64,000 bases of DNA, from contig QPGO01000005.1 of assembly GCA_008632985.1 (NCBI GenBank), positions 434,001 through 498,000 on the forward strand, in the 5' to 3' direction. Source of the DNA: Psammoneis japonica. Lineage: Eukaryota. The notes under the pieces were generated by a model. That model made no database searches and had not been told where the DNA came from. It saw nothing but the letters and a program-made list of their open reading frames with translations. Positions 18,107 through 57,249 of the stretch are shown here, one piece after another. Position numbers and translations under genes: made by a program. The first letter of the stretch is position 1. Each line of letters opens with the position of its first letter.

Positions 18107-18291
18107 AGGTGTGGACGAGTCGGTTGTCTCAATAGAATCTATTTGACATGATTCTAGTTTTCATTGGTATCTCTAGCAAGGTTAGATACTGCAGTCTGCA
18201 TCATAATAAAATAGAGCTCCGCTGTATGTTGCGAACCTACTTTCAACTGCGTGTTCGAGTATTAATCTCTTCTTTCTTCAGAGACTAGAGT

Positions 18292-20419: not shown

Positions 20420-22662
20420 TGTTGCAACTGACAGAACACCAAAGGGCAACAAGGACAGTGGCATGACAGACTCCCTGAGCACCAGGATTGTGATGACATG
20501 AGTGGCAGTGGAAAGAAGTGAGAGGCAGATCTCAGAGAGAGCTGCTCGCCCATCTAAATGGTCTGGTCATCATCCATGTGCAGTCTGTCCATCATGGGAC
20601 AGACAGGCTGACACCCTCCCCTGATCTGCAATGTCCAAATGCAGATCAATTCAAAGAACAGGGATGGTGCATGAGAACAGACCGGATGTCAAAACAAAGT
20701 GTCCAGGCTCAACTCGCAATCGCAAAGGAACCACACAGCACAGGGCAACAACATCTTCAAAAAGTCTCCAATGGCAGCAGGGCACATGTGCTGGTCCATC
20801 TTCAACAAAAAAAAACCAAAGGTGGTTTCCCACAAATGTCGCACATCAATTGAGTCTTGAACCAAAGAAGAGTTCTGTCTCAATCAACAAATGATTGAAG
20901 GAAAAGGGACATTCTGGTGAGCCACGATGTCACTGAATCTCATCCATTGAAATGGGGCCGGATGGAAATTCACCATGGCAGATGATGCGGCAAAAACAAA
21001 GCAGAAGCAACCCACACTGGACAAAGCAGCACCTCTGTCACATTTCGTTTTGCCCTTGAAAACAACTCTGGACAAAGAGAGTGCATCGCAAAAGTCCTCA
21101 GCATTGGAAGAACATGGGTGCATCAAAGGTGAGCATCGCATGGCATTCAAATTGTGTTTGTCAAGTGAGGTGTCTTGGATGAAGGTTGAATTCTCAACAG
21201 CCTTGCATGCTTCCTCCATGCTGTGGGAATCCCTCCCCTGATCACAAAGTGGAGGGTCATCATTGGCGATGGTTGACAGGTCAGGAGCACCAGGAAAAAT
21301 GCCATTCAACACCACAATGGTCTTGTTGGCAAATGAAAGAGGTGTTGTGGCAGAAGGTGACAAGACTTGGTGGCCCTCTTGCAGGGTCATGCCACTTCCA
21401 TTGGACTTGCAGGCTTCCTCTTTGCCACAAAAGGATGCAACCTGGAGTGACTCAACATGGAAAGAAGGTGGATGTGGGGCAGGTGAGCAGCCATGGATGT
21501 GCAAATCTTGATCACCAAATGTGGCATCTTGGTCTAATCTTGAATGCTGAAAAGCCTTGTGTGCTTCCTCTGAGCTGCAGTGATCCCTCCCCTGATCTTG
21601 AAATGCAGGATCATTGTCAGCGATGGTGTGGACAGGTCAAGAGCACCATGAAAAATGCAACACGACAGGCCAACGTTCTTGATGGCAGAGGGAAGAGGTC
21701 ATGCAGCAGAAGGTGACAATGCTTGGTGGCTCAGTGGCCCTCTTTTTTTTGTTGCCCCACTTCCACTTGTCAGGTTTGGACAAGAGAAGGAATGGCAGCA
21801 TTGTGTGTCCAAAATTAATGATGGCCGAACCAAAGACCCAAGTGCAAAAAACTTGACAATCAACAGATTTCTTGCAGCATCCACAAGCACCACCCAACGG
21901 CATTGCACAGGCAGCAAGCAGCTCACATGCAACCTTGGCAATGGAGCATGTTCCATCCTTTGGAGGAGTGTGATCAGCATTGCATGCAACACCAGAATTG
22001 CCAGAACCAATGAACTGAGGGGTCTGAAGCAGAGGATCCACCACATGAGGTGGAATTGCTTGATTGATGAGAAACTCATGGAACAAGTCCACAAAGTTCT
22101 GTCTGGGCCAAGCATGATCTGGGTTTTCAAAGAACGGATCCAGATTGAATGTGGAATCCGCGTGCAGCACATTCAGGGATGCATGGATGTGTGGCAGAGT
22201 GCCATGTGCTTGGAATTCACAACAGATCTCTGCAATGGATGTGGGAGCAGCCTTTGCAGGGTCGGGAGATGCCGTGGTTGTAACTGGTGAAAAAAGTTTT
22301 GGTCATGCACATGCAGAAATCTGGCATGTTTCTACAAGCATGAAAAATGCCGGGAAAGCGAGAAAAAAACACTTTCGGGAACAAGAGATGAGGCTTGCTC
22401 AATTGGCTCACACAATGCAAATGAACAAAACAGAAAGCATGGTGCAGAGTTCAGCGGCACAGCACAAGGCCACAACCTGACAGAACACCAAAGGGCAATG
22501 AGGACAGTGGCACGATGGACTCCCTGAGCACCAGGAATGTGACGACACGAGTGCCAGCAGAAAGAAGCAAGAGGCAGTTCTCAGAGAGATCTGCTCATCT
22601 GTCTGAATGGTCTGGTCATCATCCATGCACAGTGTGTCCATTGTGGGATGGACAGGCTGACA
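20420..22662 (-). mobile_element. Non-autonomous LTR retroelement (~2.2 kb)
   Basis: Direct repeats of ~195 bp at 20420-20613 (TG...CA) and ~22468-22662. Polypurine tract GATCAGGGGAGGG on the minus strand abuts the left LTR (20614-20626). No RT or integrase recognisable inside. Confidence 0.7.
21190..21745. repeat. Diverged ~190-bp internal direct repeat (21190-21380 vs 21545-21745)
   Basis: Shared blocks AGCCTTG..TGCTTCCTC, ATCCCTCCCCTGATC, GACAGGTCA.GAGCACCA.GAAAAATGC and GCAGAAGGTGACAA..CTTGGTGGC. Confidence 0.75.
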
Positions 22663-29615: not shown

Positions 29616-29987
29616 CCTAAATCGGCTTGTTCTGTGAGGTCTTTTGCTCTCACTGACGAATGACGGTTGACTCGATTCTGACTGATACATATTTTTTAGC
29701 AAGTTTTTCAACAACAGCAGCATTTGACTCCATTAAAATACTGTACAGTGACGAAAACGGAAGCATCTAGAGAAGTACCCTATCGCTTTCGCCATGGTGC
29801 GATCCTTCCAGCAGACTGCCAGAACGAAGATTTATTTACAGTATTTCTGTCGTGAATGAACACGTCACACTCGCGCGCGCATAAATCAGATCGCGACAGA
29901 AAACTAATATCCGGGTTACATCTTCGACTCTGCGGCAGGCGACGCACACGCACTTTTTTGACTTAAAACTTCAAACAGAAAGGCAGA

Positions 29988-33290: not shown

Positions 33291-33402
33291 ACAACTCTTG
33301 AGAGTACTGCTGCTGATTTGAGGCATTCGGAACCGCTGGGAGTTGTGCACTGAACCCACCTTGTATAAAGTTTATCTATCGAGATTTATAGCTACTTCTA
33401 GT

Positions 33403-34587
33403 TTACAGAACTATTATTGTTTGTCCCAATTTGAAAGCCGCCTCCTTTCCGCCAGATTTCAGGCATTCCTTTGCCTTTTGTTCGCTTTCAGAAGGCGTCG
33501 TGAAGACTATTTGCTTGAGATCTTCATCTGTTCCTCCTGGCTTGACCATTTCCGTAATAACCGAGAAGAGTTCCGATACCAGCACTTCGGGCTCCGGATC
33601 TTTTGGATGAAGCTTCTTCCAGCTTTCAATTAATTCCGATTTCCTGAAATACAGCGGACTTTCCTTTTGACCGTTCGACTCTCTTTCAAAATCTTCAAAA
33701 TAAAACAAGGGAACCTTCCCCTCTGCAAGCTCCTTCTTTCCACTTTTGTCGAGTGCTAGAGCGTCTTCGATATCCGTCTGCAACCCATTGCGAACTCACG
33801 ATTAGAAAACAAACAACAGCAAAAAGATCCAAGTAATATTTCCTTCAACACATACCTCAGCCGGGGCAACTTGAAAGTAAGTTCGTCCTCGCGAAGATCC
33901 GGGTGTTTGCGACTTGATTGCCAGACTAACTGCAAAATCAAGCGGAACTGTAGAAATTCGTGCACCAACCCAAGGATTCGGTCCGACCTCTTCAAGCTCC
34001 TCTTTTGTGGACAAGGGTGGCTGTTTGGACTGGCGTCGTCGTAGGCGTAAATATTCCAAAGCTTCTCTTCGTCCCTTCTCCGCGCTCTCCAAGGCAACCT
34101 TCAAGATCCGACTTGCTTCTCCATATGTCGTAAAGAAGTATCCCGTTACTTTTGCATCTTCTCCCACGACAGCATATGGCACTCCAGCTTTATCCACGAT
34201 AACAAAGGTCGGAATTGAATGGAGACGATTTGCTACTGTTGCGGCGTCAACCATTCCTACCTCCTGTACTTCCTCAGCTGCCGAAGCCACTTCAACTTCA
34301 GTACGTCCAATCACGCCTCCAGTTCCCATTGATGCAAATAAAAAACCACTGCTGAGTCCCAATATATTTCTTCTTGATATTGATTTCGAGTCTTGGCTAT
34401 CAACCCCCTCGCAAACATTGCTCTTATTGCTCAGTTTCGACAGTCCGACACGGTGTCTGCCATTTCTACCTGAAGATCCCGAGAGACGTGTGAATCCTGA
34501 CTTCTGCTGAGGAGCCAGCAAAAACGACAAACCAGAAATTGATTCAGACAAGAATACGTAGATCCATAAACCTATGCAGAGCTTCAT
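33403..34587 (-). CDS. Tic22-like plastid import protein
   Basis: ATG 34587; exons 34587-33856 and 33777-33403. Motifs RLHSIPTFVIVDKAGVP, ISTVPLD, KVPLFY and PLYFRKSELIESW match the Tic22 family pattern; signal plus transit-like N-terminus. Confidence 0.75.
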
Positions 34588-34989
34588 TGCTTTGCTACTG
34601 ATGTTGCAGTCGCAACAACTGCACCCCCGGTGGACTGTTGCCTTTTTTAGCACGCGTTTTTGTTTTTGTCGGCGGCGGTCGGCGGTCGGCATCGGCAGTC
34701 GCGCAGTCGCGTGAGGGACTATAAAATATGGGCGATGGTGCTTCAAAGTCGAATTCGTATCGCGCACGCGCGATAATGAAGCAATCTGATTGGTCAATCA
34801 AGCGATTTGAGGCGTCGCTGTGGACCGCCGTACAAAATCTACGCGGTTCCTGGAAATTCTGAAGTGGGCGTGAGCGTGAGCGCTGGGTCTCAAGGTCGCT
34901 GTCACAATGGCGAAGAAGAAAGGTTGCTCTACAATCGTCAGAATCGCTCATTGTCTCTCCTCTTTGAAACCCAACCTGTGTATGGAACC

Positions 34990-35516
34990 ATGAAGGATCC
35001 TATCATGACATTGTTGAAGCTCTTTGGTTCCCGGGGAGTCCTTACGGTAAGTCGCTATGAACTCAAGAGGAAGTGATATGCGTGTTCGTTCTGACAACTG
35101 CCGAAAGTGGCGGTATGTTGCAATTTCTCACTCACAATGTTACTCCATTCGCACATCCTGTATTATAGACCACCACGAAGCCCAATTCCTGGGCTATCGT
35201 GGCGCTATGGAGGCGCGCCATGCAACTCAAGGAGGAGGAACAGGAGGAGCAAATCGAGTCGTTTGCGGAGCTGTTGGAGAATTTGTTTGATGCCAAGTCC
35301 ATCCGCCCTGTGGCCGACCCAGAACACGTTCGTTTGCGCATGGACATGGTGCAGGAGTATTATCGAAGCCAAAAGATGGAAAAGATGGAGCAAGTACGTC
35401 GTGAAGAAGCCCATCGTCAGCGTCTAGCATTCCTTGAGCAACGCACACAACAAGTTCTGAATCAACCCAACCTGAATATTCCTGTGGGTGAAGATTATGT
35501 AACCTTGGCTCAGTAG
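34990..35516 (+). CDS. Small hypothetical helical protein
   Basis: Exon 34990-35046 (GTAAGT donor) splices in frame to 35169-35516; divergently transcribed from the Tic22-like gene. Confidence 0.55.
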
Positions 35517-35784
35517 TGTGGTGGCCTTGACCAACGCTTTTCTTCTCTTATACCATTGGAGAACTCCTTGATATGCATTTAAAATTAGGACGAACTTGTT
35601 GAATCTGTACTTGTCTAACCTGTGCTTTATGTCTTTGGTATCTTTGGTCTCTTGCGGTTCGTACTTTAACATGAGTTGCTCTACCAGATCGTCTCATTGT
35701 CGCTCACATAGGTTTGTTCTAATTGCTCGTGTCTTCTTACATGCCATCAAACAACTTTTGCAGATAGAAGCACAAGCTTCCTCT

Positions 35785-36519
35785 TTACCAGAATCCCTTT
35801 ATGCGGGGCTTTGAACCCTGTCGATAGTACATTCCCGAGTCTTTGTCCATGTAAAAGATTTCTCCGTTTTCATAAATGCGATCTCCGTACTTTTTGTCGG
35901 TACGAAACTTGAGATCGGCTGGCAATTCCTCCTCTGTGTACGGATCGTCATAGTATGGATCATAATCTACTCCATACTCTCGTTCAAACTGAGCAATTTC
36001 TTCATCTGACATTGCAAATTCCGTAGGCGCACGACGAGAAGAATAACCCTCTTCTTCTTCGTCTTCTTCTTCTCGCTCGCCAATGGCAACTTTTTTTCGC
36101 TGTCGTCGTTCCTCCATGGCTTCGGGTCCATAGGCAGACCATTCGTTTTCGGCTTCTTGTTTTAGGAGATCCAATTCCATCAGGGTCGGATCGGCCGCTA
36201 GCTTGCGTTCCCGTGATTCCGTCAAGCGCTGTTCCCATGCCAGCTCTTCCATACGAGACCGATGAACGTTGCGCATGACGGAAAGCATAAAACCGGTAAC
36301 TCCAAACGAGACCGCAAAGAAATTATCGGGAACATCCAGCAGAGCCATTTGAAGAGACGATTTAGATTTATGATTTGAGTTGGAAATTGGCGGCTTTGTT
36401 GTAAAGGGTGTCGGATTCAGAAACGACGATTTCGTGGTGCCACGTTGAGGCAGAAAAGCATCAGACGTTTCCATAGACATGAGTAGGGCCAAGCCCACAA
36501 ACATGCCGGAAAAATTCAT
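35785..36519 (-). CDS. Plastid-targeted protein of unknown function (one TM, acidic/Tyr-rich C-terminus)
   Basis: 244-aa ORF with signal peptide + SDAF motif, one TM segment and a YDPYYDDPY motif. Confidence 0.7.
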   Translation of the reverse strand: MNFSGMFVGLALLMSMETSDAFLPQRGTTKSSFLNPTPFTTKPPISNSNHKSKSSLQMALLDVPDNFFAVSFGVTGFMLSVMRNVHRSRMEELAWEQRLTESRERKLAADPTLMELDLLKQEAENEWSAYGPEAMEERRQRKKVAIGEREEEDEEEEGYSSRRAPTEFAMSDEEIAQFEREYGVDYDPYYDDPYTEEELPADLKFRTDKKYGDRIYENGEIFYMDKDSGMYYRQGSKPRIKGFW

Positions 36520-37031
36520 AGTTTGAATTTCTCAACTGAATCAGATATTACGAATTTGTGCTTTTATCACCCTCTCCTAGAGAGAGCTTGTGGTAACGTT
36601 AGCAGCAGCAGCAAACAGCTGTTTGCTTGGTGGGCTCACTTCACATCACACAACATCTTGATCTTTCTCGATCTTTGATCTTTGGTTGGCGCGCTTTTGT
36701 TGAGCTCAAAACCTGATGTTTCTTGTGGCGGATGGTCGTGGCGGCTCAGGACCCGATCACCACACTTCAAGTTGATGCGTCACGGCCTACGTGATTATTA
36801 GTACAATTTCTACGCGAAAAATGGCGCGCTCATGGCCTCATTCATTCATCGCGCATTATCTTTTTTCTGATTTCGCGAACAACGAACAACATCAACATAC
36901 CAATCTGCTTCTTGGTTGCTCGTCTATTTCAGACGCGAGGTTTATTTCGAGACAGGCACAACCGTCAGTGCTTACTCCACTTATTCAGTACACAACAAAA
37001 GTGACAACCGAAATTTGTACTACTTGGAAAA

Positions 37032-39102
37032 ATGAGAATTGTGTGGACCGCCTCCGTGGCGGCAGCTCTCCTTTCGGCAAGCACATCGTCCGCGTTTGTA
37101 GTGCCTGCTTCCAGTGGCATTCAGAGAGTATCATCGACTACTCCTACAATCTGGGGAGGATTGTCAAAGCACTCGTCTTCTCTTCAATCCTCTTCCTCCA
37201 GCGGTGACGATGCGATTGCAGCGTTGTACCAACGCAAGTCCCGTCCCGAGTATATTCCGGGCAAAATTTCGGATCCCGATTACGTTCGCATCTTTGACAC
37301 GACCCTTCGCGACGGAGAACAGTCTCCCGGAGCGACCCTCACGTCGTCAGAAAAGCTGGAGATTGCCCGTATGCTGGCCAAGCTCGGTGTGGATATTATC
37401 GAGGCGGGCTTTCCGATTGCCTCGCCAGACGACTTTAATGCTGTCAAGCAGATTGCAGACGTGGTAGGCAACGAAGTGTTTGACGATGGATATGTTCCAG
37501 TTATTTGTGGCTTGAGTCGGGCCAATCCAAAGGATATTGAGCGGGCGTGGGATGCTGTCAAGGGTGCAAAGCTACCACGAGTTCATACCTTTATCGCAAC
37601 GTCCAAAATCCACATGGAAACGAAATTGCACAAGACTCCAGATGAGGTTGTAGAGATTGCCGTCAATGCCGTTTCGTTTGCCAAATCCTTGGGATGCAGC
37701 GATATTGAGTTCTCGCCCGAGGATGCCGGACGGTCTGATCCAGAGTTCTTGTACAGAATCTTGTCGGAGGTAATCAAAGCTGGAGCCACAACTCTCAACA
37801 TTCCTGATACGACTGGCTGGAACATGCCTTGGGAGTTTGGTCAACTCATAAGAAGCTTCGAGAAAATGTCGAGGGAGCCGAAAATGTGGTGTTTTCCACT
37901 CATTGTCAAAACGATTTGGGATTGGCTACGGCGAATTCTCTTGCGGGTGCCCTCAATGGAGCGAGGCAGTTGGAATGTACCATTAACGGTATTGGTGAGC
38001 GTGCCGGTAACGCATCGTTGGAGGAAGTTGTCATGAGTTTAGCTCTCAAGGGAGAGACGCATTTTGAGGGTGGACCCGGCACGGGCAAGCTTTATACGGC
38101 TATCAATCCGGTTCACATTTCACCGACTTCCAAGATGGTTTCCGAGTACACGGGTATGCAGTGCCAACCTCACAAGGCCATTGTCGGTGCCAATGCCTTC
38201 AAGCACGAATCTGGTATTCATCAGGACGGAATGATCAAAAACAAGAATACGTACGAAATCATGACACCGGAATCGATTGGTTTGATGCGTGGTGACAAGG
38301 AGAGTGGAGCAGGCATTGTCTTGGGCAAGCACTCGGGACGCAATGCGGTTGGAACACGTCTTCGTGAATTGGGTTACGAGTTGGAACCCGACGCGTTGAA
38401 TGCGGTCTTTGCGCGATTCAAACAAGTGGCAGAACGAAAAAAGGGTGGACTGGAGGATGAAGATTTGGAAGCCCTGGTCAGTGACGAGGCTGGACGGGCC
38501 AACAATTTATGGGAACTTACAGGACTCCAGTGCTCTACGGGCATGTCTGGAATCCCCACGGCGACTGTCAAGATGCGAGGGCCCGATGGACTCGAGCGTT
38601 ATGTTGCCGCCACGGGCACCGGACCGGTTGATGCTGTTTACAAGGCCATTGACCAAATAATGGGAGTGAGTGTTGAACTTGAAACCTACAAGCTCGAGTC
38701 AGTCACGGAGGGTATTGAGGTGAGTTGATAATCAAGAGGACGAATCGTGCAGCTCAAATCAGCTCGACAGCTATCTTATTTCTCCTATCTGTGTCGTCGC
38801 TTTGACAGGCCTTGGCAACCACCCGGGTAGGCATCAAGGCAAAGACAGGTGGTCCGAATGATTCTCAGTCGCTTCATGCACAGTTGGGAGTTGTTCGTGA
38901 CCGCATGTTCTCCGGTGTGGGGTCTGATACTGACATTGTCACATCCTCGGGGCGTGCGTACACTGCTGCCATTAACAAGCTCTTGTTATGGAATTTGAGA
39001 CGAAGTGAACAAGGAAACGATGGCGAAAAGAACGCGAATGGTACAGTTGGGGATGCAACCCCAGTAGTGAATGACGAAGTTACCACAGTAGCAGCCGCGT
39101 AG
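37032..39102 (+). CDS. leuA: 2-isopropylmalate synthase, plastid-targeted (apparent 1-nt frameshift at ~37850)
   Basis: Motifs [60 protein letters not shown] and GKHSGR, plus the C-terminal regulatory domain. Intron 38720-38808; SSAF presequence. Confidence 0.93.
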
Positions 39103-43429: not shown

Positions 43430-44950
43430 AACAATGGCCAAAGGCAATGAGATCAGCGGTTGGCTCCCTTCTTCTCCAAGCACAGGAAGCGGTGTTCTGC
43501 CCTTGTCGATGAGGGTCTGAAATTGGGCTTCTCCCAAAAAGAGTGCATGCGGGACAAACATGCTCGTAACGTCCGTGAAGAAACAGGCCAGTGTCCCAGC
43601 TACGGCAGCTCGAGCTGGTTCATGCCGAATGCCACACATTCGCAACAGTCTGCTGGATGTTTTCCGCATCATTTCCGAGAGACTCAAGCTCTCGTTTCCC
43701 ACCCTTTGAGTGAGAAGTGAGCTAGAACGCATCAAGGGTTGGTCTTGCGAAAGGAGTCGTCTTCGAGCCCGGCGTTTCCATTCTCAACGTCTCCGACAAT
43801 GTCTGTCTTTTTGTTCTCCTCCTCGTCCTCCTCCTGCTCGATCTCGTCCGCGTGTGTGACATGAAGCCAACCATTCACAGACTTTGACTTTCTTGATGGC
43901 ATCGCAGCAAATCACACCAAGAACAGCACCGACGAGGCCGCAAACAATGGCAATGTAAAAGATGGGGCTGGGCATCGCCGTGGCAAGAAATTCGTAGTTG
44001 CAGCAAGCCTGTAACACCATTCCTCAGAATCACGCGGTTTACCAAAACGGGGACAATGGACGCAATGCTTTCGAATGAAGGTGCTTTAGAGAGCTGCAAG
44101 CCCATTCGATGGGGTGCTTCTAGCACAAAAAGTGCCTCCGCAATGGGAAGTCCGAAGAAGCCAGCTGCTGCCGCCAACGCAGACGTCAAGTTCATGGCTC
44201 TTGCAGACAAGACTGAATGTTGGGTCACGACACCCAAGCAGGAGCCAATCATGCCACCAGTCAGAATTAGGGGAAGCTCGGGTCCCAAGGATAGACCAGG
44301 CGCCAGTCCGACAGTCAACAAAACAAGAGATTGACAAAGGCATCAGAGCCCTGAACCCCCTGGAATTCAGCGACTTGACACATTCAATTTGCCCCGGAAT
44401 GGCTTTCGGACCGGCAAAACGACAAGATTTAAGACAGAATCTGCAACATGATGCGAGCAAGAGGCAGACGGTTAGATGGACCAAACAGAACAAACAAAAT
44501 TGCAACCCACTGATGTGAAGCAAGACTTGCCCCGCCAGAAATGGATGGGCAAAGCCAAATGTAGTGAGAAGAGGGAATGCCCATCCAAGTCGGTAAAGAC
44601 TCCCATCATGTGCAGCAGCTCAGAAACAGTCTTTCACATGAACTTCACACGAAATTTAATGACATTCTTCCACAAGGCAGTGCAGACTCCAAAAGCGATT
44701 CCTAAATTCAATGCCCACACCAATTGCTGCAGCGAGGTGACCCCGGGGTCTTCGGGGGTTAAAGAGGAAGTATCTCGCCATACGACACGCAAGGCTGGGT
44801 GGATCGACGCAACACATGGACCCGTCCTCGTTTGTCACAAGAACTGTTTCTACCCACGGAAGCAGGGTAAGAACAAATTTGATGCGATTCCAACAAATCA
44901 GGGAACACAAATTGCCGTCATCACTTGTCTTCCGATTGCTGCAGTCATGC
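43430..44950 (-). pseudogene. CLC voltage-gated chloride channel/antiporter pseudogene
   Basis: GLSLGPELPLILTGGMIGS, AAAAGFFGLPIAEALFVLEAPHRMGLQ, AAVAGTLACF and upstream GIAFGVCTALW...GVFTDLDG lie in different frames, with stops and frameshifts. Confidence 0.75.
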
Positions 44951-45726
44951 GTCCTCATTGGCAGATGAATCACATGACAATTCCTCAATCAGTGGCATGA
45001 TTGAGCCACCAATGTTGTGAATCGATGGTGGCGTGGGTGGGGTCACAGCTGGTGGTGCAGGGTTGGCGAGGGCATTGGTTGATTCTTGAAGGGCAATGGA
45101 GGAGAAGCGTGCAACGTCAGCTTGTTGCGGTTTTGCTTTTGGTCAACAGGGAAGTTTGAAGAACCAAGTGGTGGAGCAGTCAGGACAGCACCGTAGTCAC
45201 CTTGGGCAACTCCAAATCCTCCAGAATTTGGTTTCAAACAGAGAGACTTCCCGACTCATGTGAGCATTAGGCAGCGCTCCTATCCTGGCAGCAGAGGCAT
45301 CCCGGCACTCTGAATTGTCCGTCACGACGACAGATCTGAATCCATGTCGTCATCCGAGCACTGAAGAGAGTCTTCTTGCAAGACTTTCCCAGTGCCTTTT
45401 GTTGCATGAAGGTCATGGGCGACACAGCAGATGGCAATCCACCACGGATCCAAGTCATGGACGTGCTTGTCGCCTTCGCTGAGCAACCCACTTGACTGAC
45501 GTTCAGCCAATTTTGTCAGAGGCGGTGCCTGTGGTGGATGCGCATTGGTTGGGCTGGATGGTGAGCGGATTGACACGCATGTCAACCATCGGGGATGACA
45601 ATTTATGGTTGGCTCCAAACACATCCTTTTCCAACATCATGTCATCCTGATGCACAGACAACAGCCAGAGAATCCATGTCGCCTGAGTCCATTCCAACAA
45701 GCTTTTATGGAAAGGGGACACATCCA

Positions 45727-46304
45727 ACTCAGAACACTGCACACTGCCTGGCGAGTGCGGGAGGTTCTCAACAACCCAAGAGGCAAAGAAATCACCACTC
45801 GGCTAATTGTTGAGTCCCTTCTCCGCACACACATTTGGGCATGTGTTGTGCACAGCATCATCACACAGCATTTGTCCAACTCTCCCTCTCGTCGCAGGAT
45901 GGGTTGTCGCCATGTGGCGCATCCGCACGGCGGACTTACGAAATTTTGACCATGCACTCCCCTCTGTTGGGCAGGCGGATGGGTCAGCGCCATGTGGCGC
46001 ATCCGGCCAACACCAAGGGAGGAGTGGGTTCGAAGCCCAACCGCCCACCCCGGATGGGGCAGAAAAGGGGCAGGCCGAGAAAGAAAAGGAGGCTTGGATT
46101 TGAGGCCGACTCGAACCAGCGACCTCAGGAAGCGTAAAGACTCATAACCACTCAGAATGCTGTACACTGCCTGACGAGTGCGGGAGGTTCTCAACAACCC
46201 AAGAGGCAAAGAAATTGCCACTCGGCCAATTGTTGAGTCCCCTTCTCCGCACACACATTTAGGCATGTGTTGTGCACAGCATCATCACACAGCATTTGTC
46301 CAAC
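45727..46304 (-). mobile_element. TRIM-like miniature LTR retroelement (578 bp)
   Basis: Direct repeats 45727-45880 and 46150-46304, with CATCCA on both flanks (45721-45726 and 46305-46310). Polypurine tract GAGAGGGAGA (minus) abuts the left LTR; GGTTATGAG (minus) abuts the right LTR. Confidence 0.85.
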
Positions 46305-49300
46305 CATCCACAAACTTTTTGAGGGGGCTTGATGTCTTCTTTCTGCGTGTCGTTGATGAAGCTGGGATGGTTTCAGGAGAAACGAGCTTCTTGCTCTGGG
46401 TGTTTTTCGTGGGAGAAATGCTCGTAATGTTCTTAGAAGGAGCCAGCAATGCCTGCGTTTTCAACGTGCAGGTACTCGAGAGACTTGATTTTGCCAATCT
46501 CCATCGGAATGGACCGTTGACGTAGTTCCCGCCGATTCTCAGGTCTCATGTGTGCACAGAGCACGCAATCCTTGAAACACCTTTCCTCTTAACCGTCCAC
46601 GAGTGGCCCAAGTTCGAAATGTCCTGGACAGAATGAGCAAATGCATTAGCTTGCCAAACTGGAGCGGGATGCCTTCGTAGATGAAGTCGTTCGAGCCAGC
46701 ATTCAAGCGACACCGGTTCGTCAACTGGTGGAGGAAACAATGCCCGTCGCCTCCGCTGTTTGTGCAAAGTCATTGTGCAGATGCACCTCACCAGTGGAGA
46801 GGACGCATGCGAGACGATTGTTTGGGAGCTCGAATGCAACGACAGACCTGCCGATCCGATCGCCGATCGCGCGCAGACAACGTGCTGCATGCACCGGTGC
46901 ATTGTTCTTCCGCGTCCGACAGCCACTTGTCCGCTGAAATCCAGGTGCGGTTCTGCACTGGACTTTCTTTGCTTCAGAGTAGCGAGTTAGATTCGCACTG
47001 TCTTGAAGCCATGCCAGAGCTTGCTCCACCTCGGAGGGCAACCTTGGACAACGTTTCTGACTGAGAAAGCTTGCCAGTTGAGCAACTCTTGTTGCTCGAG
47101 TCGTCCTGCAGGGAAGATGTGATCAGCAAGAAGCCCATCACAAACACAACATCAGTCAGAGCCAAGACAAAGCTGCTGATGTTGAAAATCACCAATTTGA
47201 AGGATCGCACATTTTGTTGCCTCTCTGTCAAGAGGAAGCAGCTCGCCAGGAGAAGGTCTGTTGACAAAGAACTCTTCATGAACGAGATTCCCATCAACTT
47301 CTTCGTTTCCAATGCAGCAGGTGCCAACTTTTCAAAGGTGAAAGCATTGATGACTTGATGCACAATGGGAGTGGTGAGTGTGGCCCACCAACCACCGCCG
47401 CCACAGAGAAGGTGCTGGCATCCCGGCACTTCCCCAAGCACAGCAGATCAAGCATGTCCAGCAGTGTGGCAGCAACGGATGATGCCTCAAAATGAAGCAA
47501 AGAACTTGGGTGTCTCAGTCTCAATGGTGAGTGCACCATTTCCACAAAACATTCTGATGAAGGTGACATGGAGGAACAGGCCAGCTGTGTTGCACTTCTC
47601 ATTGAGCATGACATCAGTGAATTTTGGTGCCAGCAACTCCCTGCATTGAGGTGGAAAGCATGACTGCCGATCTGCTTCCCAGAAAACAATGCGATCATGA
47701 TGCACACTTGCTTGGAGGTGCAAAGCTCCTCCTTGGACAAGACATTTTGTGGATCCAAAGCATGCCACAAAGACTGCCTTGCACAAGGGTTGCCACTGGC
47801 CATGCTGTCTTTGGGCTTTGCATTCACAAACGCTTTCGTCTTCTTCCATCAGTGGGTGAGTGACTGTTGTTGGGAGTGAAAAGGAGATGAAAGCGCTGCA
47901 GCACGCAACAAGAATCAATGTTGGATTTTGCTTGAGTGGCAGCAAGGGTTTCTGGTTGGAAGTGACACACTGTCATGTGTGTGTCGTCAAATTTTTGGAC
48001 GATGCACACACATGTTGTGCAATGAAGTGCGTGGGCAGCACTGTGAGGAGGTCTGCTTGCGGCTGACAAATGTCATTTGTCCTGCAGCCACAAGCCATTC
48101 ACCCTTGTCATTTCACATTTCATCTGTTCCAGTGCTTCCATTTTTAAGTGGTCAGCAGGTGGTGGGGAGAGCTGCCTCTCTAAATCCTCACAAAGTCTTT
48201 GTGATTTTGTGACACAGCTTCTGCACATTCACACAATCATCAGTGCACCTGAATTTGAGCAGGCCTTTGAAGAAAGCACCTGGATTGGAGGGCAGACACA
48301 CTTTCTTTGCTGAGTCACTTTGACAACAACAAGGTTTCTCACACTTCTTTTCCAATTCAGCATCGCATGATTGGTCCAGCACTTGTCACGATTGGTGCCC
48401 AACCTTTCCAACCCAACAAAACAGAGGGATGCTGCTAGAAACAATGCTGCAGACAAGAGGATTGGCTGAAGCTCTTCCATCATTTGCACCAGGCTCAGAT
48501 CATGACCACATGTGTGCTCCAGTCTGTGCTGCAATGCAAAGAAACTGATGGGGGACCCTGACCCCAACAACAACAACAACAACAACCCGGAAAGCTGCCA
48601 TTGACAACTCCCAATGTTGCTGCCAAAATCTGCCCAATCTTTTGAGCATCAGACTGACATGCTCTCAGCCAGAGGCACCAGAAACTGCAAATGAGCACTG
48701 AACTGTTTCCTGTGGAGATTTGCAACACCTGCCCATCAGGGAATGACAAGTGCAAGGGTTGCAAAGATGCGTGCAAAACTGGTGCAATGGCAACTCTTGT
48801 TTCCAGGTTTAGACTCTCATGAGAGCTCTTGACTCCAGCTTGACTCTTGGCAGAAGTGCTTCACACCAGTGTCTTGAAATCATGCACAGGTGGTTGCCAC
48901 TGCTTGAGCAGCATCTCCTGCTCACAGAGAGCTCCAAGAACATGCCATGGAAATGCTGTGCACAGCTTGCACAAAGTGTTGCACATCAGCATCTTAGAAT
49001 CATTGTCATGTGGCTGCAAATGGTGGCCACTGCCAGAGCAACTCCTGCATGCAGAGCAACCCATCATGCTCACAAAAATGCCACACAGCCCACAAAGTGC
49101 TGCTTCAGCATCTTGGAATCATGTGCAAATGACAACTGCTGCTTGAGCAACTCCCACATGCATGCACACAGAGCAACCTCCAATGCACCAGCTGTCGTTG
49201 CCAAGTGGGAAAATGCTCTCTGCAAATTGCTGCACTTGTGTGTTCCTGTCACATCTTGACAGCACAGTTGCCACTCAAGCAACTCCTGCACAGAGAAACC

Positions 49301-49899
49301 TGACATGACAGTTGTGTTGTTGTGGCTGCATTTTTGCAGATTGCCTGTTTGCAGCCATTGCTGCATTTTGAAGTCTGGTTGTGCACAAGTGTTTTTGATG
49401 TGGCGGCCTGTTCTTTTGCCACACCGGCAACAAACCACCTTCTTCCATTTCTTTTGCACTTGGCAGCAGCAACACTGTTGATTTCCTCAGCGCTGCTTCT
49501 CTGCGCAGCCCCATCCACAGCAACATGCTCAGATTTTAAGCATTGTTGGATGCAGGCATGCAAACAGGCATGCTGCTGAAGCTTGTTTGCAGGTCAGTCA
49601 ACAAGACAACATTGACAAACTTCTCTCACCTGGTGCTGTGGACCTGCTGTCATTGACAGCCTCAGATTCTGAGTCATTTTGATGTGCTTCCAATCCACCA
49701 GAGACACTGGGAGCAGTCCTGCCATTGTTCTCCTTGTGTGAGTGGACAGCTTCTGAAACAATGTCTGAATGGCCTCACACCACTGACACCTCAGAGAGGA
49801 AATGTTTGTCCCCAACACTTTGAGGAAGACACCCTGCATGCTCCTCCTGTGCTTCACACCAATTGCACTGGAGCTCTTCACCCCACCAGAGTGACAGTG

Positions 49900-50900
49900 C
49901 AGCAGCAGCACTTCCCACTGTGGTTGTCCAAGTGAAGAGCAGGGCAGCCCCAACAAGATGTTGTGCTGCTTGCAGTCCTGGAAAGCCACCATGTTGCAGT
50001 GTGTCTTTAGCACAAGGTCACTGTCCATCCATGCTCCTTGCAACACAGCTGGAAAGGTGGCAACAGGAAGCCTTGCAGCCTCGGTGATCATCATGGTTGG
50101 TTTGCTGTTTTTGTGGATGGAAAAAACATCATGCACCTGCCGTTGAGTGGAAGCACCAAAGCAGCAACAGAGACAAGTTTCTTTGGGAAAGTGCATCTGC
50201 AGGCTGCCAATCCACAATGTCTGTCAATGGAATTCGGGCAAGTGCTCCACTCTAGAATCCTTGGAGTTTCAGTTTTTGTTGTTGTGAGCTCTTTGTGCAA
50301 TCACACATTTGTTTGCTTCTTTGATGAACAGACAGCCAAGAAAGGATCTGATGAAGTCATTGGCATGATGGCTTTGCACATTGAAAATGGTTGCATCAAC
50401 AATGACATCCTTCAGCTGGACCTGCACTGTGATGGATGTGCTGGGCAGAGTTGGAACAATCAGCTTGCCCTTTTCTGTGAAGAGGTGGCAGATCCTTTGT
50501 CAAGCAAGGCATTGTTTGCTTTGGTTTTTGAGCACCACTGTTGTTGGTTGCTGCGGTCACATTCAAAATGTCTGGCTCAGCTGCGCTGTCATTTGCAAGG
50601 TGTTCCACGCTCAACACCCTGGGAATGACTGACCCCCGATCATCAAATGGGTTGAATTGACTTGTTGCATCTGTGAAATCCAATGTCAACATCCACAAAA
50701 GATGACTCAGCTGATTGGTGCACATTGGATTGAATTTTGTGGGGTGATGGGGCTGAAAGCAGAGGTGACACTCTTGACAAACACAAGCTGGGATGGAGCA
50801 CAGGACTGTTGCAATGGAACAATGGTGGTCACCCATGCAAACACCATCCTCTGCAACAAGTCTGGCAGCTTTGCTGTGCTGGAGAAAAGAGCAGTCAGGT
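49900..50900 (+). mobile_element. Degenerate DDD transposase remnant, Sola-like
   Basis: SMEFGQVLHSRILGVSVF...CFFDEQTAKKGSDEV...LDLHCDGCAGQSWN resembles the D.qq.l..YsRkL / DE..akKGsnEv / DgC.GQNkN motif series. Confidence 0.6.
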
Positions 50901-52399
50901 TGACCTCCTGAAGGGCAACCAAGCACTTCTTTTGTGATGCAGCAAAAACCACACAATGCCATGTGGGCAAAAGGGGTTTGAGAAACATGACCATTTGAGT
51001 CAGTGCACCTGTCTGTGAAAAAAAAAACAGAAAACTGTGGGATGCTTGTGGCAGTGATGCCCACAAGTCCACTCAAGAAGAGTGCGCACACCTGATGCCA
51101 ATCATCCACAGAGCAAGGTGAGACAACACATCAGCAACACTTGCTGGAAGAAGCAGATCTAAAGTGCTGAGAAACAAAACAAAAAACAACAAAACTCAAA
51201 ACCAACTTCTGCTTTCCTCTGACACACCCACGCCATTGCCAACAGAGCTCTTGATGAAGAGCAGGGAAGATTGGATGAATCAGATCATCACTCCCAAGGT
51301 TGTTGAGGAACTCCAAACACAGAACAGACAAACAGAAAGGGAAAAATGCAGAGTCTGTTGCACTTGAAAATGTGACCTTGCACTGGGCTGATTTTTACAC
51401 ATTGAAGTGCAGCAAAAGCAAGACAAGTGCTGTTTCACGTTCTCCACAACCAGAGTGTCAGCTGACATGGCAAATGCATGGCAAGAAATGTGGCAGCTTG
51501 AGCTTTTGATGCAGGCTGCTGTTGGCATCATAAAAGCCAAAACAACAATCCAAAACTGCAAACAAGCCATCGTGCAAAAAAATGGAAAAAAATTGAGTCA
51601 TGATTGCACGGTGAAGCACAGCAAAATGGTGGCCACTTCATTGCTCTCAATCTTGACAGATGCAAGGCCAATGAAAAGTTGCGCCCCATTCCAAGCACCT
51701 GCCTCTCCTGGACACCACCTGCCATTGAGTCAGGTGACTCTCTTTTGACAGAAGAAAACTCATTTCTTCTTTGATTTTTGCAGCATCCCTGCCCACAGCA
51801 GTGGAGCGGTTTGCAGCTGGCTTGGCGACAGATTGGAGGCAAAAGCTGGTGGAGCAGAGCCAGATGACAGCAGACTTGTGGCAACATTGATTGTCATGCT
51901 CATTCTTTTTCTGCTGAATCACAATTTTTTTGTTGCCGGCCCCACTGCTGAGAATGGTGGGCACATTGTGTGCAAAGTGACAGCCACACCAACTTGACAT
52001 GCACAGCTCAGTTTCAGTGCAGATTTCTCACACCAACACATGCTGGGGGCACAATGGCCACTCAGTTTTTGTGTCACTTGAGGGACAGCTCTTGAGGGGG
52101 GGCAAGTTCCTCAGCGACAAAGACCTGGAGAGTTGCAAAGAAGCTCAGCTTGGGTTTGAAATTCAAGCAGTGTCCAGATCTCCAGCATTCAAAACAAGTA
52201 GACTGCAGATTGTCAACTCCTTGGTTCATGGACATGCACTAGCCATCAACAAAAGACAGTGACCATGCTGCATGTGGCATCATCTGATGTTGACTGGAGG
52301 TGTTGTTCAGCATGAAAAACAATGAGACATCATTTGAAAGCAAACAAACAAGCCGACGACATTGGCAGAGGATGCAGAGGCTTTGAAAGCATGTTTCCA

Positions 52400-54900
52400 G
52401 CAATGGAGTGAGTGCTGTGTGATGTTGGGCTTGTGGCCAGCAAAGACACAGCAAAGCAGTTTTGTGGAAACAAGAGTGGTTGCTTGAGGGGTTGCAACGC
52501 AACAGCGGTGTTGATGTTTTTGTGTTCTCTGTGGAAAAATTGTGGCGCCAAACTCAATGGTCAACTTTGTGAGAAGGAATGCACAGATTTGAATCTAGGT
52601 GGTGCAAGCAAGGCACAGAAAGTGCCCAAATGACTTTGACAAATGACTCACAAAGCAACAGTTCCTGGGACATGATCTCGAGAGCATGGCATGCTGCACA
52701 TCATGCATTGCTGCAGCCAGTGCATCATCTGCCAGCCAGTTGACTTGCTTGTCCAATGCTCTGTGGAGGGCAGATGTGAGACAAAGTGTGCAAGACATTG
52801 CTGGCAGTCTGATGATGTGTGCACTTGCATGCTGCACTGGCTCACAGGCTCTGTGAGGCAGTTGGCACATCATCAATGCCTGCTCTCTGCAAAAACATCT
52901 GAAAGTCCTCACCAATGAACTCTCCACCATGTTATCACAGACACAAGAATTTGGATGAGGGCAACACAATTTTGAAGCCACTGAGCAACATGATGCAAAT
53001 TTTTGTTCTCAAACCAAGCAAGAAGATCAATGACACATTTGAAACAACACCAACACATGCCAAAGCACATCAAATGTGATTTCTTAGCCTCAGATCTCAG
53101 TCTTCCAAGGGCATGTCAAATTGCTCCATGTGTTGCTTGAGAGTGATCTCTGGATGGCCAGGAACCAAAGTTTTCAAATGACAAAAATGTGTGCCACATC
53201 CAGCACAATGTGATGACAGCATTGTGCCAGATCAGGAGGCAGCAACAGTGCAGCAAGAATGTGGAAAAATGTGGCCAGCAGCAGATCAATTGCTTGGTTC
53301 AGAGCAAATCAACTCCTGTTTGATTTTTTAATTTTTGCATTCAAACAGTCTGTTGTCAACACCATGCAACAATGGTTTCTCCGATTGTGCAAGAAACAGC
53401 CAGCCAACATGCTGTCCTTGCTGCCCACAGCATGTTCAACAGTGGGAGCAAAATTTTCAGGAACAGGTGCTGCCTGAGCACACACTGCAAGCCAGCACAT
53501 GAAAGGTGAGATTTTTTTGATCAGCAAAAACAAAAAAGTTGCTGCCAAGCAGCCCTTCTCATCAATGACAGCAGAGCTGTTTTGCTGTGCAGTGCTGAGC
53601 TTGTGCAAAAGACTTGAACATGCAATGGGCTTGCCCCTTGCCCTCCTGCACACAATTGCCATGCCTGTGCCCATCTGACAGCCAGAGGAGTTGGCACAGA
53701 TGTGGAGGGGTTTGTTGTGATCACAGCAGACCCAAAGAGTGTCATCTGACACAAAATTTTTCATGTCTTCAATCAAAAGCCTTTGGACACTCTGGCATCT
53801 GCCTCCAGCTTGCTCTCACCAGCCAACTTTGTAACAGAAGCAAGCACCACACGCAAATGACACAGCCACATGTTGTGGCTGCTGCGCCAACAAATGAGCA
53901 CAGCCTCCGTGTGACATTTTGTGGTGGTTGCATTTGCAGCACTGCCTCACCCTTTTTCTTCCACAGCTGGGCTCTTGGTGCTTGCATTGACCACCAATGG
54001 TGGGGCCCAGGCCAGAAATTCTGTCTCTTGGAGACACACCACACTTGCACTTGAGTGGTCTCACCCTGAGTTTGTTCTCTTCCAGCCTTGATGACAACTC
54101 ATCAAGATGATCCATGTGAGTGTCAAAGTGTTCATCAAATTGAGCAATGTCATCAACACAATTCTCAACATTTGGGCCATTTGCCATTTTCTTGACAGTT
54201 GACTGAGTGACATCAGGTGCCATTTCCAAACCCTGCCATGAGACAGCAGCACAATCAAAACTTGCCATGTGGTGTGATGACAGGGCACAGGTCCTTGGAC
54301 TTCTTGTTGAGCTTGGCATGGCATTGGAGGACAGTTGGGTTGACTTTTGTCAAATGCTTGCAACCTGAGTGATGGCAAACAACATCTTGATCAACAAGCA
54401 GGAGAGGTCGCACACCTTGTGCTTGAGGACCTTCTCTTGTTGAGCTCTAAAATCAAATGCCCAGTGTGCTTGACTGCATGCCTTGGGAATGATGAAGGTT
54501 CCAGCTGCCTGCTCCACCAGATTGACTGGCTCCAACACAACAATGCCTCACAAGATGCTGCAGCCCATTCTTGAGTGTCTCGCATCTTGGCAGCCCGCAA
54601 CTCTCAGGTGTGCCGCAGGCTCTGGAATGGAAAGGAACATGTGGGCAGCAGCATCATGCAGCTGAGTCATTTTCATGCTCTCAAGATCAGAGTGCTCAAA
54701 CTTTGCCTCACAGTTGACACAGGGTTCTTTCTGTGAATCGCTCACTGCCAAAAATTGAGCGCTTTGCAGCGGTCCTTTCCAAGGACTTTTTGCCTTGTTC
54801 TCCAGCTGTTGCACCCAGCAGATTGCCAAATCTTGCTCTTGATGACAATGTTGGCTCACTTTTTTGAAACTGCAGCTCTTGCTTGCAGATCTCTTTTCTC
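52400..54900 (-). mobile_element. Degenerate Ty3/Gypsy pol (RT-RNaseH-integrase order)
   Basis: AAGTFIIPK...W..DFRA..KVLK.KVC; RT core NCVDDIA...H..HL..L..RLEE..L.V.PLKC; RNaseH DHNKPLHICANSSGCQMG..GKPIAC..KLSTAQQN; integrase HPNSCVCDN and DDALAAAMH. Confidence 0.85.
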
Positions 54901-57249
54901 TCGTTCAGCCAGTCTGGTGGAGTTGGCTCTCTGGCATTGTTCTTCATCCTCCACCAGCCAGCTGCTCTTCATCAGAGTGCACGACATCGCAATGTCTGCA
55001 TGCATGACAAAATTACATTGCCACATTATAAAATTTGCTTGTCTGCACACAACGGTTTTTGTCATTTAGTTGGTTTTTATCTCCTGCTGTTCTTCATGTT
55101 TGAGCACAGATGCTTTTTAATTTTTGTGCTCTGCCTTTTTCACAACAACCAACGATCTTTAACGACAAGCCAAACATTGCAACCTCATGCAATGAAATTT
55201 TCATCATGCAAAGTGTGCACCAATTGTTCAATCAAAAACTGTGCTCCAATTGGCCCATTCGTCCGCATCGTCCTCTTCATTCCACATGTCTTGTCCGCTC
55301 TCTTGCAAGAATTTCAAATGTGCCGCTGCCACATTGGATGTTTCCTCGTCACCGTTCCAAAAAAGCCACACTGCATTTCTTGCATTTGGGTGAACATCAT
55401 CGAGAGGAAGAGGTCCCTCGAAACACAGAATCGCATTGATGCTCCCCTCTTGACGTCGTGTTGTCTGCTTCTTTTTCTCTTTCTTCATTTTGCCCGTCCC
55501 ATTTTTCTCTTCCTTCTTCGTCTTGGTGCCGCCTGTTTTCACTGTCTCTGGCGTCTTTCCATCCGAATCCTTCTTTTTCATTGATCCCGTCACCGTCGCC
55601 TTCATCGTGTGTCACTTTGTTTTGGATCCATGTTTCTGACTTCTCTCTGTGCTGTCTCCATTTCCGAATGTTTCTTTGTGATTGTTCGCATGCGTCACTT
55701 GAAGGCACCCACGTGTTCTTCACGCACCTCAATGCGCATGCAGAAATCCATGTTGTTTTCCAGCACATGCACCCTTTCTCCTGATGCATGTTTGCACAAT
55801 GTTTTCTTCCATCAATTCTACACTCCGTGTTGCCCTTTGCCGGTGTGATCTCACGCAGGATTTCCCTGGGAGAAGTCACACATGCGTCTGGCAGGTTTTT
55901 GTGTTTAAAACTCCAAATCCCACCAGGCGCGCATGTGACTTCTCCCATGCACCACTCTGGCACATTTCTGTAGAAACCAGAATTTTGTGACTGATGCACG
56001 ACCAATCTGGTGAATGCAATGGCGGACCCCCTTCATCAATCCCGGAGGATCATGTGATGGAGACAGTTGATGGTTTTGTTCACGCTGATGCTGCTTGTTG
56101 TTCAGAGGAACAGAGAGCAAAGGATGCAAAGGCTGCTGTGTCAAGATTGGCAGAAGCAATGGCAGAAGCCCGTCGTGCCGGTGTGGCTGCAACGACCGCA
56201 CTTGAGAGTGCTTTGTTAAATCAAGCAACGACCACTCGTGAATTTAAGCACATCTGTGTGCAGTGCATCGAGTCATCGATCGAGACACACTGTTCAGACA
56301 ACGACTGATTGTTGCAGTGGAAAACCACAGCGAAGCGGAAATGAGTTTCCAGTGCTTTCTTCACGGCAACGCATTTGATGCAAAAGAACTGGGGCTCCCA
56401 ATCTCCATTGCGGGACATCAAAAATCAGAATGTGGGCCGCACATGCTGCACAGCTGTGACTTGACGTTGCTTCTGAGATGCCTCAGGGCAAATTCTGACA
56501 CAGACGCCACAAGAGTGGCAGAGAGGGAGCAATCTGTGATTGACAGCATTGACAAATCCATCCACCACCGTGCCGTGCCACTCCTTCGAAGGCGACACCC
56601 AACACAGCCGCAGCACGTCCTGAAGGATGCAATCACGTTGCTCCACGAGGCCCTCAATGATTTGATGAGGAAAGACGTTGCCTTGCAGTGACAGTGGCAA
56701 GCTTTGTGTGATCTGAGGCCAGGCACAGATCAAATGCGGGGAGGGACATGGACCGTGATCCGGGCTGTGGACGAAGAAGCCATGGCAAGAGAAAGGGTCC
56801 TGCAGTTGGCATTGCAAATCGAGGCACAATTGGTGGCTGTCAACCAGCCTGACCACAGCGCCGACTTTCAGCATGCAATTGTGGCTGCCAGGGAACATTT
56901 CATGGCGCAGGATGACCAGATGGACCGTGCAATTGGACACTGCATAGAATCTGTGAGGAAGCAATTGCTCTAAAACTGAACACATCTGATGCATTGAGAG
57001 TTTCCTGTCATGTCGGTGGTTGGGAAAGCCTTCCAATCAGGAAGAAGCTTGTCTTGGAGTTTCAGAAGAAGACATCAGAACGAAAGCAATGGAAGGTGCT
57101 TGCACCGCACTGCTTCACGTGTGCCACAATGACTTTGCCAATTCTGAAAGGATCAAACTCATCATGTTTGCAAGAAAGAGTTGGGAAATCACTGTGAGTG
57201 AATGACAGATTGATGTGCGCATCCTGTTTTGGAAACAAATCTGACCAAC

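Follow-up and report, generated by a model that had tools for sequence, protein, structure and literature searches.

To our knowledge, under-representation of TpA is nearly universal and is usually ascribed to selection. Fungal repeat-induced point mutation (RIP) turns CpA into TpA, with enrichment of TA, and a CA/TG doublet, in which one copy of a repeat reads CA and the other TG, is the mark classically left when both copies lose a CpG. A third kind of process, which hypermutates TpA in foreign DNA, integrated viruses included, has been described in the chlorarachniophyte alga Bigelowiella natans: of the 231 mutations that mutation-accumulation lines gathered in two hypermutable regions of integrated viral origin, 230 were A>G or T>C, with all of them at TpA, and the rate was ~6e-7 per site per generation; the de novo mutations, at ~1e-7 to 1e-6 per site per generation, appeared in some lines only (Mettrop et al., bioRxiv 10.64898/2026.01.13.699255). 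The same preprint describes 124 clusters that are depleted of TpA and enriched in CpA+TpG, reports an enrichment of reverse transcriptase (RT) and DDE domains in TpA-poor genes, and proposes an ADAT2-like deaminase as the enzyme (bioRxiv 10.64898/2026.01.13.699255). Our literature search for TpA-directed hypermutation returned this preprint (2026, one alga) as the sole relevant report. Here we analyze 64,000 nucleotides of Psammoneis japonica DNA (GenBank assembly GCA_008632985.1, contig QPGO01000005.1, positions 434,001 to 498,000, forward strand; hereafter the window), and within it a 578-bp element at 45727-46304 that is bounded by two direct terminal repeats.

We favor, with a probability of roughly 0.6, the reading that this is a retroelement of the TRIM kind (terminal-repeat retrotransposon in miniature) lying in DNA under TpA-directed transitions, and that most differences between its long terminal repeats (LTRs) are footprints left after insertion. 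An earlier note, made from the letters alone, had proposed TpA loss at five sites of the LTR pair with the CpGs untouched; its mechanism appears right in kind and has an experimental precedent elsewhere, and it is partly supported here, not proven site by site.

A 578-bp element with two diverged terminal repeats

Read on the minus strand, the 578 bp follow the order target duplication, LTR, GGTTATGAG, 269-nt core, GAGAGGGAGA, second LTR, target duplication, with repeats of 154 and 155 nt:

45721..45726, no strand: left target-site duplication, CATCCA, identical to 46305-46310
45727..45880, minus strand: terminal repeat copy 1, 154 nt, the 3′ LTR when read on the minus strand, adjoined by the polypurine tract
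45881..45892, minus strand: polypurine-tract-like run, ACGAGAGGGAGA on the minus strand, directly upstream of the 3′ LTR, as read from the sequence
45881..46149, minus strand: internal region, 269 nt, non-coding, 20 CpG and 3 TA (dinucleotide counts, Pfam)
46141..46149, minus strand: motif like a primer-binding site (PBS), GGTTATGAG on the minus strand, immediately after the 5′ LTR
46150..46304, minus strand: terminal repeat copy 2, 155 nt, the 5′ LTR on the minus strand (repeat alignment)
46305..46310, no strand: right target-site duplication, CATCCA, identical to the left copy

The minus-strand purine run GAGAGGGAGA abuts the repeat at 45880. At the PBS position, GGTTATGAG complements CTCATAACC, which would correspond to the anticodon loop of initiator tRNA-Met together with two bases of its stem; ARAGORN found no tRNA gene within the 64-kb window. 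Priming from the anticodon loop has been documented for copia and Ty5 (PMC5371799). The 3′ end of the LTR and the PBS resemble those of a second, older element in the window:

20429..22662, minus strand: older non-coding LTR element, 2.2 kb, with LTRs at 20429-20613 and 22478-22662

The LTRs of this older element are 185 nt long and 85.5% identical, have TG..CA ends and are flanked by a 5-bp duplication, GCAAC, at 20424-8 and 22663-7; the polypurine tract is as in the 578-bp element, GGTTGTGG stands at the PBS position, and none of the element's frames matched a Pfam family. Within this PBS-like GGTTGTGG, TA now reads TG. The 214-aa minus-strand frame that runs across the 578-bp element matched no Pfam family at E <= 0.1 and had no relatives of near or shorter lengths among 5.8 billion proteins.

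Contigs from public runs (X1, X2 and X3) were aligned on the locus in one alignment, of which 12 of the 215 aligned pieces are considered here; variants are listed at a share of at least 5% and away from piece ends, so that an unlisted position is no proof of identity. An X1 contig of depth 58 represents the empty site: it runs from 45721 to 46306, omitting 584 nt, with five letters that fit either side, and carries a single copy of the target duplication. The filled site is matched by a contig of depth 29 with 0 differences. The empty-site contig thus has twice the filled-site depth (58 vs 29) and shows 9 differences in the 144 nt of flank (45650-45721, 46306-46380); it could represent a second, diverged haplotype or else a segment that has been duplicated. 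At 45685, the one flank difference listed, the window has TG and the contig TA. Word depth climbs from 81-88 in the flanks to 616-38971 within the element, indicating a high-copy family, with the proviso that this depth is a sum over contigs and not a copy number.

The core contains two hairpin-like direct repeats of 29 nt, 45897-45925 and 45977-46005, each with a GCGCCA..TGGCGC palindrome; a further TG/CA doublet separates the two units. A long hairpin at 45955-46063 had an Rfam match at chance level only (mir-326, E 1.3). A reading of the 578-bp element as a hammerhead 'retrozyme' was dropped, Rfam giving no match.

The minus-strand layout together with the likeness to 20429-22662 points to a TRIM-like derivative of a copia-type family, and 45727-46304 reads as an ordinary TRIM-like insertion on the minus strand. 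It is a non-autonomous LTR retrotransposon of a high-copy family that inserted on the minus strand with a 6-bp duplication, and its PBS-like motif would be of the 'half-tRNA' type known from copia. The classification as a TRIM given in the earlier note is therefore borne out by a real LTR-type insertion with duplication and empty site, but the ends are not TG..CA. With a miniature element of the LTR type, it follows that the differences between the repeats arose after insertion.

The two repeats are 94% identical, and the repeat search found no further copy inside the window. They differ by eight substitutions, all eight of them transitions, and by one 1-nt indel. Alignment and script reproduced exactly the differences named in the earlier note; they are given as copy 1 (45727-45880) / copy 2 (46150-46304), here and throughout:

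45735-6 CA / 46158-9 TG: doublet, from the script-made difference list
45740 C / 46163 T: gCAc / gTAc, with TA in the context GTAC in copy 2
45751 G / 46174 A: the sole other substitution
45793-4 CA / 46216-7 TG: doublet, in the context TTAC if TA
45804 T / 46227 C: gcTAa / gcCAa, with CTAA in copy 1
46239: indel, an additional C in copy 2
45837 G / 46261 A: tTGg / tTAg, with TTAG in copy 2

All four CpGs of copy 1 (45752, 45758, 45800 and 45824) are paired in copy 2 (46175, 46181, 46223 and 46248), as had been claimed. Single CG/TG or CG/CA differences are absent from the LTR pair, and changed CpG copies number 0 of 8. TA occurs once in copy 1 and twice in copy 2; none is common to both copies, and every one lies at a difference site.

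When eight random transitions are put on copy 1, at least two CA/TG doublets arise with P = 0.002. The doublets are thus clearly non-random, which cannot be said of the TA singles by themselves. A change of TA status is possible at 38 of the 154 positions, and three of the four single events fall on these (P ~0.05, by arithmetic from the counts). Pyrimidine-purine steps hold 82 of the 154 LTR positions and seven of the eight substituted ones. A CA/TG doublet can be derived from an ancestral CG or from an ancestral TA altered on opposite strands. Because the doublet has two possible ancestors and a TA/CA difference has no direction, polarity must come from outgroups or from knowledge of the process.

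Direction, extent and context of TA loss in the window

The direction of change can be read from a decayed coding sequence in the same window:

53819..54349, minus strand: dead reverse-transcriptase remnant in TA-free DNA (RVT_1 E 0.0019, below the family cut-off)

The remnant has 38 library homologues at E <= 1e-3 (best 2.5e-7), and the four homologues tested are RVT_1 at 1e-20 to 1e-54. At the five columns where at least half of 16 homologues have Tyr, the remnant has F, C, C, H and H. Its catalytic YxDD has become CVDD, with the codon TGT, a conserved YY has become HH, and its 177 residues include 14 Cys, 11 His and 1 Tyr. Tyr is encoded by TAY, and a single transition turns its codons into those of Cys or His; TA has therefore been lost and not gained. 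The A:T to G:C direction at TpA thus holds for the window; for the LTR sites, we infer the ancestral states. Two of the library homologues, P0018 and P0022, have His or Phe where others have Tyr (HIDD; HH for YY) and may come from similarly edited copies, in the same or another organism.

About 28 kb of the window is nearly TA-free, with a TA observed/expected ratio (obs/exp) of 0.03-0.1 and CA/TG at 1.6-1.9, part of it with CpG retained. In the purged 4-kb bins, TA obs/exp is 0.03-0.06 and CA/TG 1.56-1.90; gene-bearing bins (1-20 and 28-39 kb, with Pfam hits) have TA at 0.47-0.67, CpG at 0.72-1.04 and CA/TG at 1.03-1.29. The purge comes in two tiers. The bins at 20-26, 40-41 and 47-55 kb contain 0-5 TA per kb (50-70 expected), CA/TG of 1.7-2.1 and 4-25 CpG per kb, compared with ~58 expected. 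The bins at 55-62 kb are equally TA-poor (obs/exp ~0.06) and keep CpG at 27-40 per kb (~0.6). Runs of at least three 1-kb windows with TA depletion plus CA/TG enrichment cover 20-26 kb and 47-58 kb. CA and TG are nearly equal on one strand, indicating that both strands are affected. The largest domain is as follows:

47001..55000, no strand: largest domain depleted of TA and CpG together, with 19 TA, 68 CpG and 1882 CA+TG in 8 kb

In the flanks of the 578-bp element, 14 TA are observed for 73.6 expected and 9 for 69.6, with 46 CpG for 78.6 and 60 for 79.1; the element itself has a TA obs/exp of 0.21. That TpA loss can be separated from CpG decay, as the earlier note had argued, is confirmed by these flanks and by 55-62 kb, which are TA-poor yet keep CpG. 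The outcome that the note had named as refuting it, a RIP-like gain of TA, is contradicted, since old elements are TA-free (obs/exp 0.03 in the older LTR element).

The purged blocks hold the LTR elements, the reverse-transcriptase remnant and a weak match to a Plavaka transposase; bins with Pfam genes keep TA at 0.47-0.67. As TAA and TAG cannot occur there, purged blocks are full of long spurious open frames, and 150 frames of at least 90 aa scanned in them yielded few weak Pfam hits only. The Plavaka match (58682-59476, minus strand, E 0.006, below the cut-off) lies in the TA-poor block that keeps CpG. A chloride-channel (Voltage_CLC) fragment at 43878-44342 (minus strand), without a single Tyr among its 155 residues, is situated in TA-poor DNA (13-17 TA per kb); the TA-loss process may have reached a gene or pseudogene here. 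A dinoflagellate origin with hydroxymethyluracil was abandoned as an idea: a spliced-leader motif had 0 matches at up to 3 mismatches, and the literature search gave nothing relevant.

TA survival per bp was compared between purged blocks and normal DNA (1-9000, 11001-20000 and 28001-39000) according to context. Survival is 0.244 for YTAR (36 sites in purged vs 204 in normal DNA), 0.057 for sites with TAY on one strand (27 vs 653) and 0.004 for RTAY (1 vs 337), and the classes differ strongly (chi-square 66.7, p = 3e-15). In line with this, the TAs left in purged blocks are mostly YTAR, namely CTAA, CTAG, TTAA and TTAG. Survival in the two-strand class approximates the square of that in the one-strand class, which fits a strand-wise reader of 5′-TAY-3′. 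From this preference, TTAC, the context at 45793-4, is predicted to turn mainly into TTGC.

Taken together, these data point to a TpA to TpG or CpA (A:T to G:C) process that has left the old mobile DNA of the window almost devoid of TA, that acts to some extent apart from CpG decay and that favors 5′-TAY-3′. As to the enzyme, an adenine deaminase is the preprint's proposal (bioRxiv 10.64898/2026.01.13.699255).

The older element is depleted of both dinucleotides, with TA obs/exp at 0.03 and CpG at 0.22. Its LTRs differ at 27 positions, 22 by transitions and 5 by transversions. The differences include eight CA/TG doublets, three CG/TG singles, one CG/CA within a compound change and one TA/TG single; of its four LTR CpGs, none is common to both copies. 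Four further CA/TG doublets are found between the internal tandem repeats of this element (21127-21374 / 21481-21730). By comparison, seven paralogous pairs from gene-bearing DNA, a set that leaves out the tandem-repeat pair 31167-32106, have 0 CA/TG doublets among 401 differences. Doublets thus mark repeats run down in both TA and CG. A tandem gene duplication with weak PAN-domain matches (3242-5221 / 6434-8201, 70-82% identical) lies in TA-normal DNA; its copies differ by many CG/TG and CA/CG singles and by no CA/TG doublets.

States in other family copies and the alternatives

Exact-pattern scans with two LTR stretches found no match in metagenome contigs, and scans of viral contigs and prokaryote genome contigs for family copies gave no match either. 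Evidence on the family comes from the aligned contigs. One X3 contig is a solo LTR in different flanks; its listed changes relative to copy 2 are G>A at 46180, G>A at 46217 and C>T at 46227, and none is listed for 46163 or 46261. Together, these listed changes and unlisted positions suggest that X3 has TA at all four of the sites 45740, 45793-4, 45804 and 45837; it also has TA at 46180, where both window copies read TG. At 45793-4, the X2 contig has TG and the X3 contig TA. Since TG, CA and TA all occur among the copies at this site and CG never does, an ancestral TA is the simplest solution. At 45804, T is found in the X3 contig and C in the X2 contig. At 45837, A makes up 1827 of 5632 depth at the copy-1 place and is also the state in X2, with no variant listed at 46261. 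Where a process is directional and saturates, the ancestral state is not the one shown by most copies, a familiar example being CG when an Alu consensus is built.

We therefore regard 45740, 45793-4, 45804 and 45837 as probable TA losses. The losses would have fallen on 45740 in copy 1, 46227 in copy 2 and 45837 in copy 1, and on both copies in opposite directions at 45793-4 / 46216-7. The doublet 45735-6 / 46158-9 is probably an ancestral CpG decayed on opposite strands; a reading of both doublets as CpG decay was kept for this site only. With these assignments, up to 7 of 10 TA copies would have been lost and 0 of 8 CpG copies, in keeping with the neighboring DNA, which belongs to the TA-only tier. 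Thus, of the five sites at which the earlier note had expected an ancestral TA, four appear to have TA in X3, and 45735-6 is unlikely to have had it, with CG in two contigs. Its description of the CpGs as untouched stands for the four that are retained; it probably fails for 45735-6, where CG is found elsewhere in the family, and CpG decay is seen in the older LTR pair and in other family copies, at 46224, where G>A makes up 1174 of 2938 depth, and at 45893 (C>T).

Several observations weigh against the favored reading. The LTR termini are not TG..CA, the minus-strand LTR being GTTGG...CTGAGT. The LTR pair is symmetric, so that a TA/CA difference by itself gives no direction at any site, and a single pair is too small to prove direction alone. 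In the chance test with eight random transitions, at least three TA-type singles arise with P = 0.26, which is within chance for a repeat this rich in CA/TG. As for the family, 45735-6 is CG in the loose-end consensus of two X1 contigs before 45747 (...AACGCTGCAC...), and 45740 is CA in three loose-end contigs, two from X1 and one from X2. At 45793-4, X1 contigs have TG at the full depth over copy 1 (1850 of 1850), and over copy 2 they show no variant across a depth of 10320. At 45804, T has a depth of 1850 (X1, copy-1 place) and C of 2938 (X1, copy-2 place), and both alleles at this site and at 45837 occur at high depth in the family, which fits gene conversion too. The X3 contigs amount to 30 Mb from a run whose kind is guessed, and the locus itself is absent from them. 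Polarity at any single site rests on few contigs, the numbers are tiny, and identity with the Bigelowiella process is argued solely from the resemblance of the signatures.

One alternative is ordinary neutral transitions combined with CpG decay: the TA alleles would be new (CpA/TpG to TpA), and both doublets would come from ancestral CpGs decayed on opposite strands. The states CG at 45735-6, CA at 45740 and TG at 45793-4 in other copies are in its favor, as are the CpG decay active in the family (46224, 45893), the older LTR pair with none of four CpGs in common and eight CA/TG doublets, and the ease with which random transitions produce three TA singles. However, the old elements, at 0.03, are TA-free, so that no appreciable TA-gain process acts on repeats, and 45793-4 shows TG, CA and TA among copies and never CG. 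Moreover, by simple arithmetic, four CpGs kept, none lost singly and two lost doubly are very unlikely at equal rates, and the internal region retains 20 CpG in 269 nt. We thus consider this combination unlikely. Methyl-CpG decay is not the sole cause of the LTR differences: there are no CG singles, four of four CpGs are shared, and CG is found elsewhere at 45735-6 only. An argument from equilibrium, by which gains would equal losses and a TA/CA site would be a 50:50 case, was also set aside, since the repeats are far from the fully purged TA level and the flux is one-way.

Similarly improbable, in our view, is a partial replacement of one LTR after insertion by gene conversion, with family members of another subfamily as donors. 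By depth, the family is a large one, both alleles at 45804 and 45837 are frequent in it, the T and G of copy 1 match the contig of depth 1850, and the combination in copy 2 (TG, C, A) is that of an X1 contig of depth 947 that matches 46184-46290 with 0 substitutions and 1 gap. In contrast to what a conversion tract would look like, the differences span 103 of 154 nt and all but one are pyrimidine-purine transitions; the CA of copy 1 at 45793-4 is seen in no listed contig at the 5% threshold, and the intact target duplication excludes a crossover between elements.

A partly duplicated SINE-like (short interspersed nuclear element) or tRNA-derived unit that spreads by a different route, with 424 nt present one and a third times, is very improbable. 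In its favor are the non-TG..CA ends and, on the minus strand near 46100-46150, a B-box-like GGTTCGAGTC and an AGTGGTTA motif. Against it, ARAGORN gave no tRNA, and Rfam, with E values up to 10 allowed, no match to a tRNA, a SINE or a hammerhead; the positions of the polypurine tract and of the PBS-like motif coincide with the borders of the repeats; the canonical LTR element 20429-22662 has a similar LTR 3′ end and PBS; and the entire unit is missing from the empty site, where one duplication copy is left. A tRNA-derived or SINE reading of the core was likewise rejected, ARAGORN and Rfam giving it no support.

Comparison with known systems

Active removal of TpA from mobile or foreign DNA would mean genome defence by a new kind of chemistry, A:T to G:C, which mirrors RIP. 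So far its precedent is one preprint, to which the window adds independent comparative evidence of a very deep purge, as well as evidence that the TA-loss process is separable from CpG decay. The flanking-base preference constrains the enzyme, a single-strand reader of T-A-pyrimidine being a fit, and LTR pairs could serve as built-in clocks for relative rates genome-wide, as the earlier note proposed. We tentatively suggest, at slightly less than even odds, that TpA editing as in the chlorarachniophyte also operates here, maybe in another lineage (the nearest Atlas protein clusters are rich in diatoms, a weak hint, with the phylum known for 5 of 55 members), that it acts on tiny non-coding retroelements and their surroundings, that it prefers 5′-TAY-3′ about threefold over TAR per strand, and that it runs ahead of and independently of CpG decay.

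In its anatomy, the 578-bp element resembles TRIMs and small non-autonomous Ty1/copia derivatives, which likewise have direct repeats around a short non-coding core, a target duplication, a polypurine tract and a high copy number, and in which a motif also stands at the PBS position. Its repeats of ~150 nt and its total length lie within the range of TRIMs, roughly 100-250 nt and under about 1 kb, respectively. It differs in its ends, which are not TG..CA, and in its 6-bp duplication, where 5 is usual. Its PBS-like motif appears to match the anticodon-loop region of initiator tRNA-Met and not the tRNA 3′ end, which would make it of the half-tRNA type, as in copia and Ty5 (PMC5371799).

As in the methyl-CpG deamination of silenced transposons, CpG obs/exp is 0.12-0.26 with an excess of TG/CA in the most decayed blocks, and CG/TG differences occur in the older LTR pair. 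In contrast, that process cannot remove TA, and TA is lost here also where CpG is largely kept. With fungal RIP, the window shares directional transitions that are confined to repeats or foreign DNA and destroy coding capacity. The direction, however, is the opposite one: RIP would enrich TA, and TA obs/exp is down to 0.03 for the older LTR element and to 0.21 for the 578-bp element.

The process in B. natans, as presented in the preprint's main text, is alike in turning TpA into TpG/CpA, in CpA+TpG enrichment, in kb-scale blocks and in affecting sequences with RT and transposases; by our arithmetic, ~24 of the 64 1-kb bins of the window pass the preprint's cut-offs (Rho TpA <= 0.43, Rho CpA+TpG >= 1.52). 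Our evidence is compositional and comparative, in contrast to the de novo mutations observed in B. natans. The words 'CpG', 'LTR', 'flanking' and 'trinucleotide' do not occur in the preprint's main text, and neither the 5′-TAY-3′ preference nor a CpG-independent tier of TA loss is found there. Both are thus new points worth following. In contrast to B. natans, where the region of nucleocytoplasmic large DNA virus (NCLDV) origin stands at 0.45, the purge in the window reaches 0.03-0.06 and covers ~40% of it, and the window combines a preference for TAY over TAR with a second tier in which CpG is lost as well.

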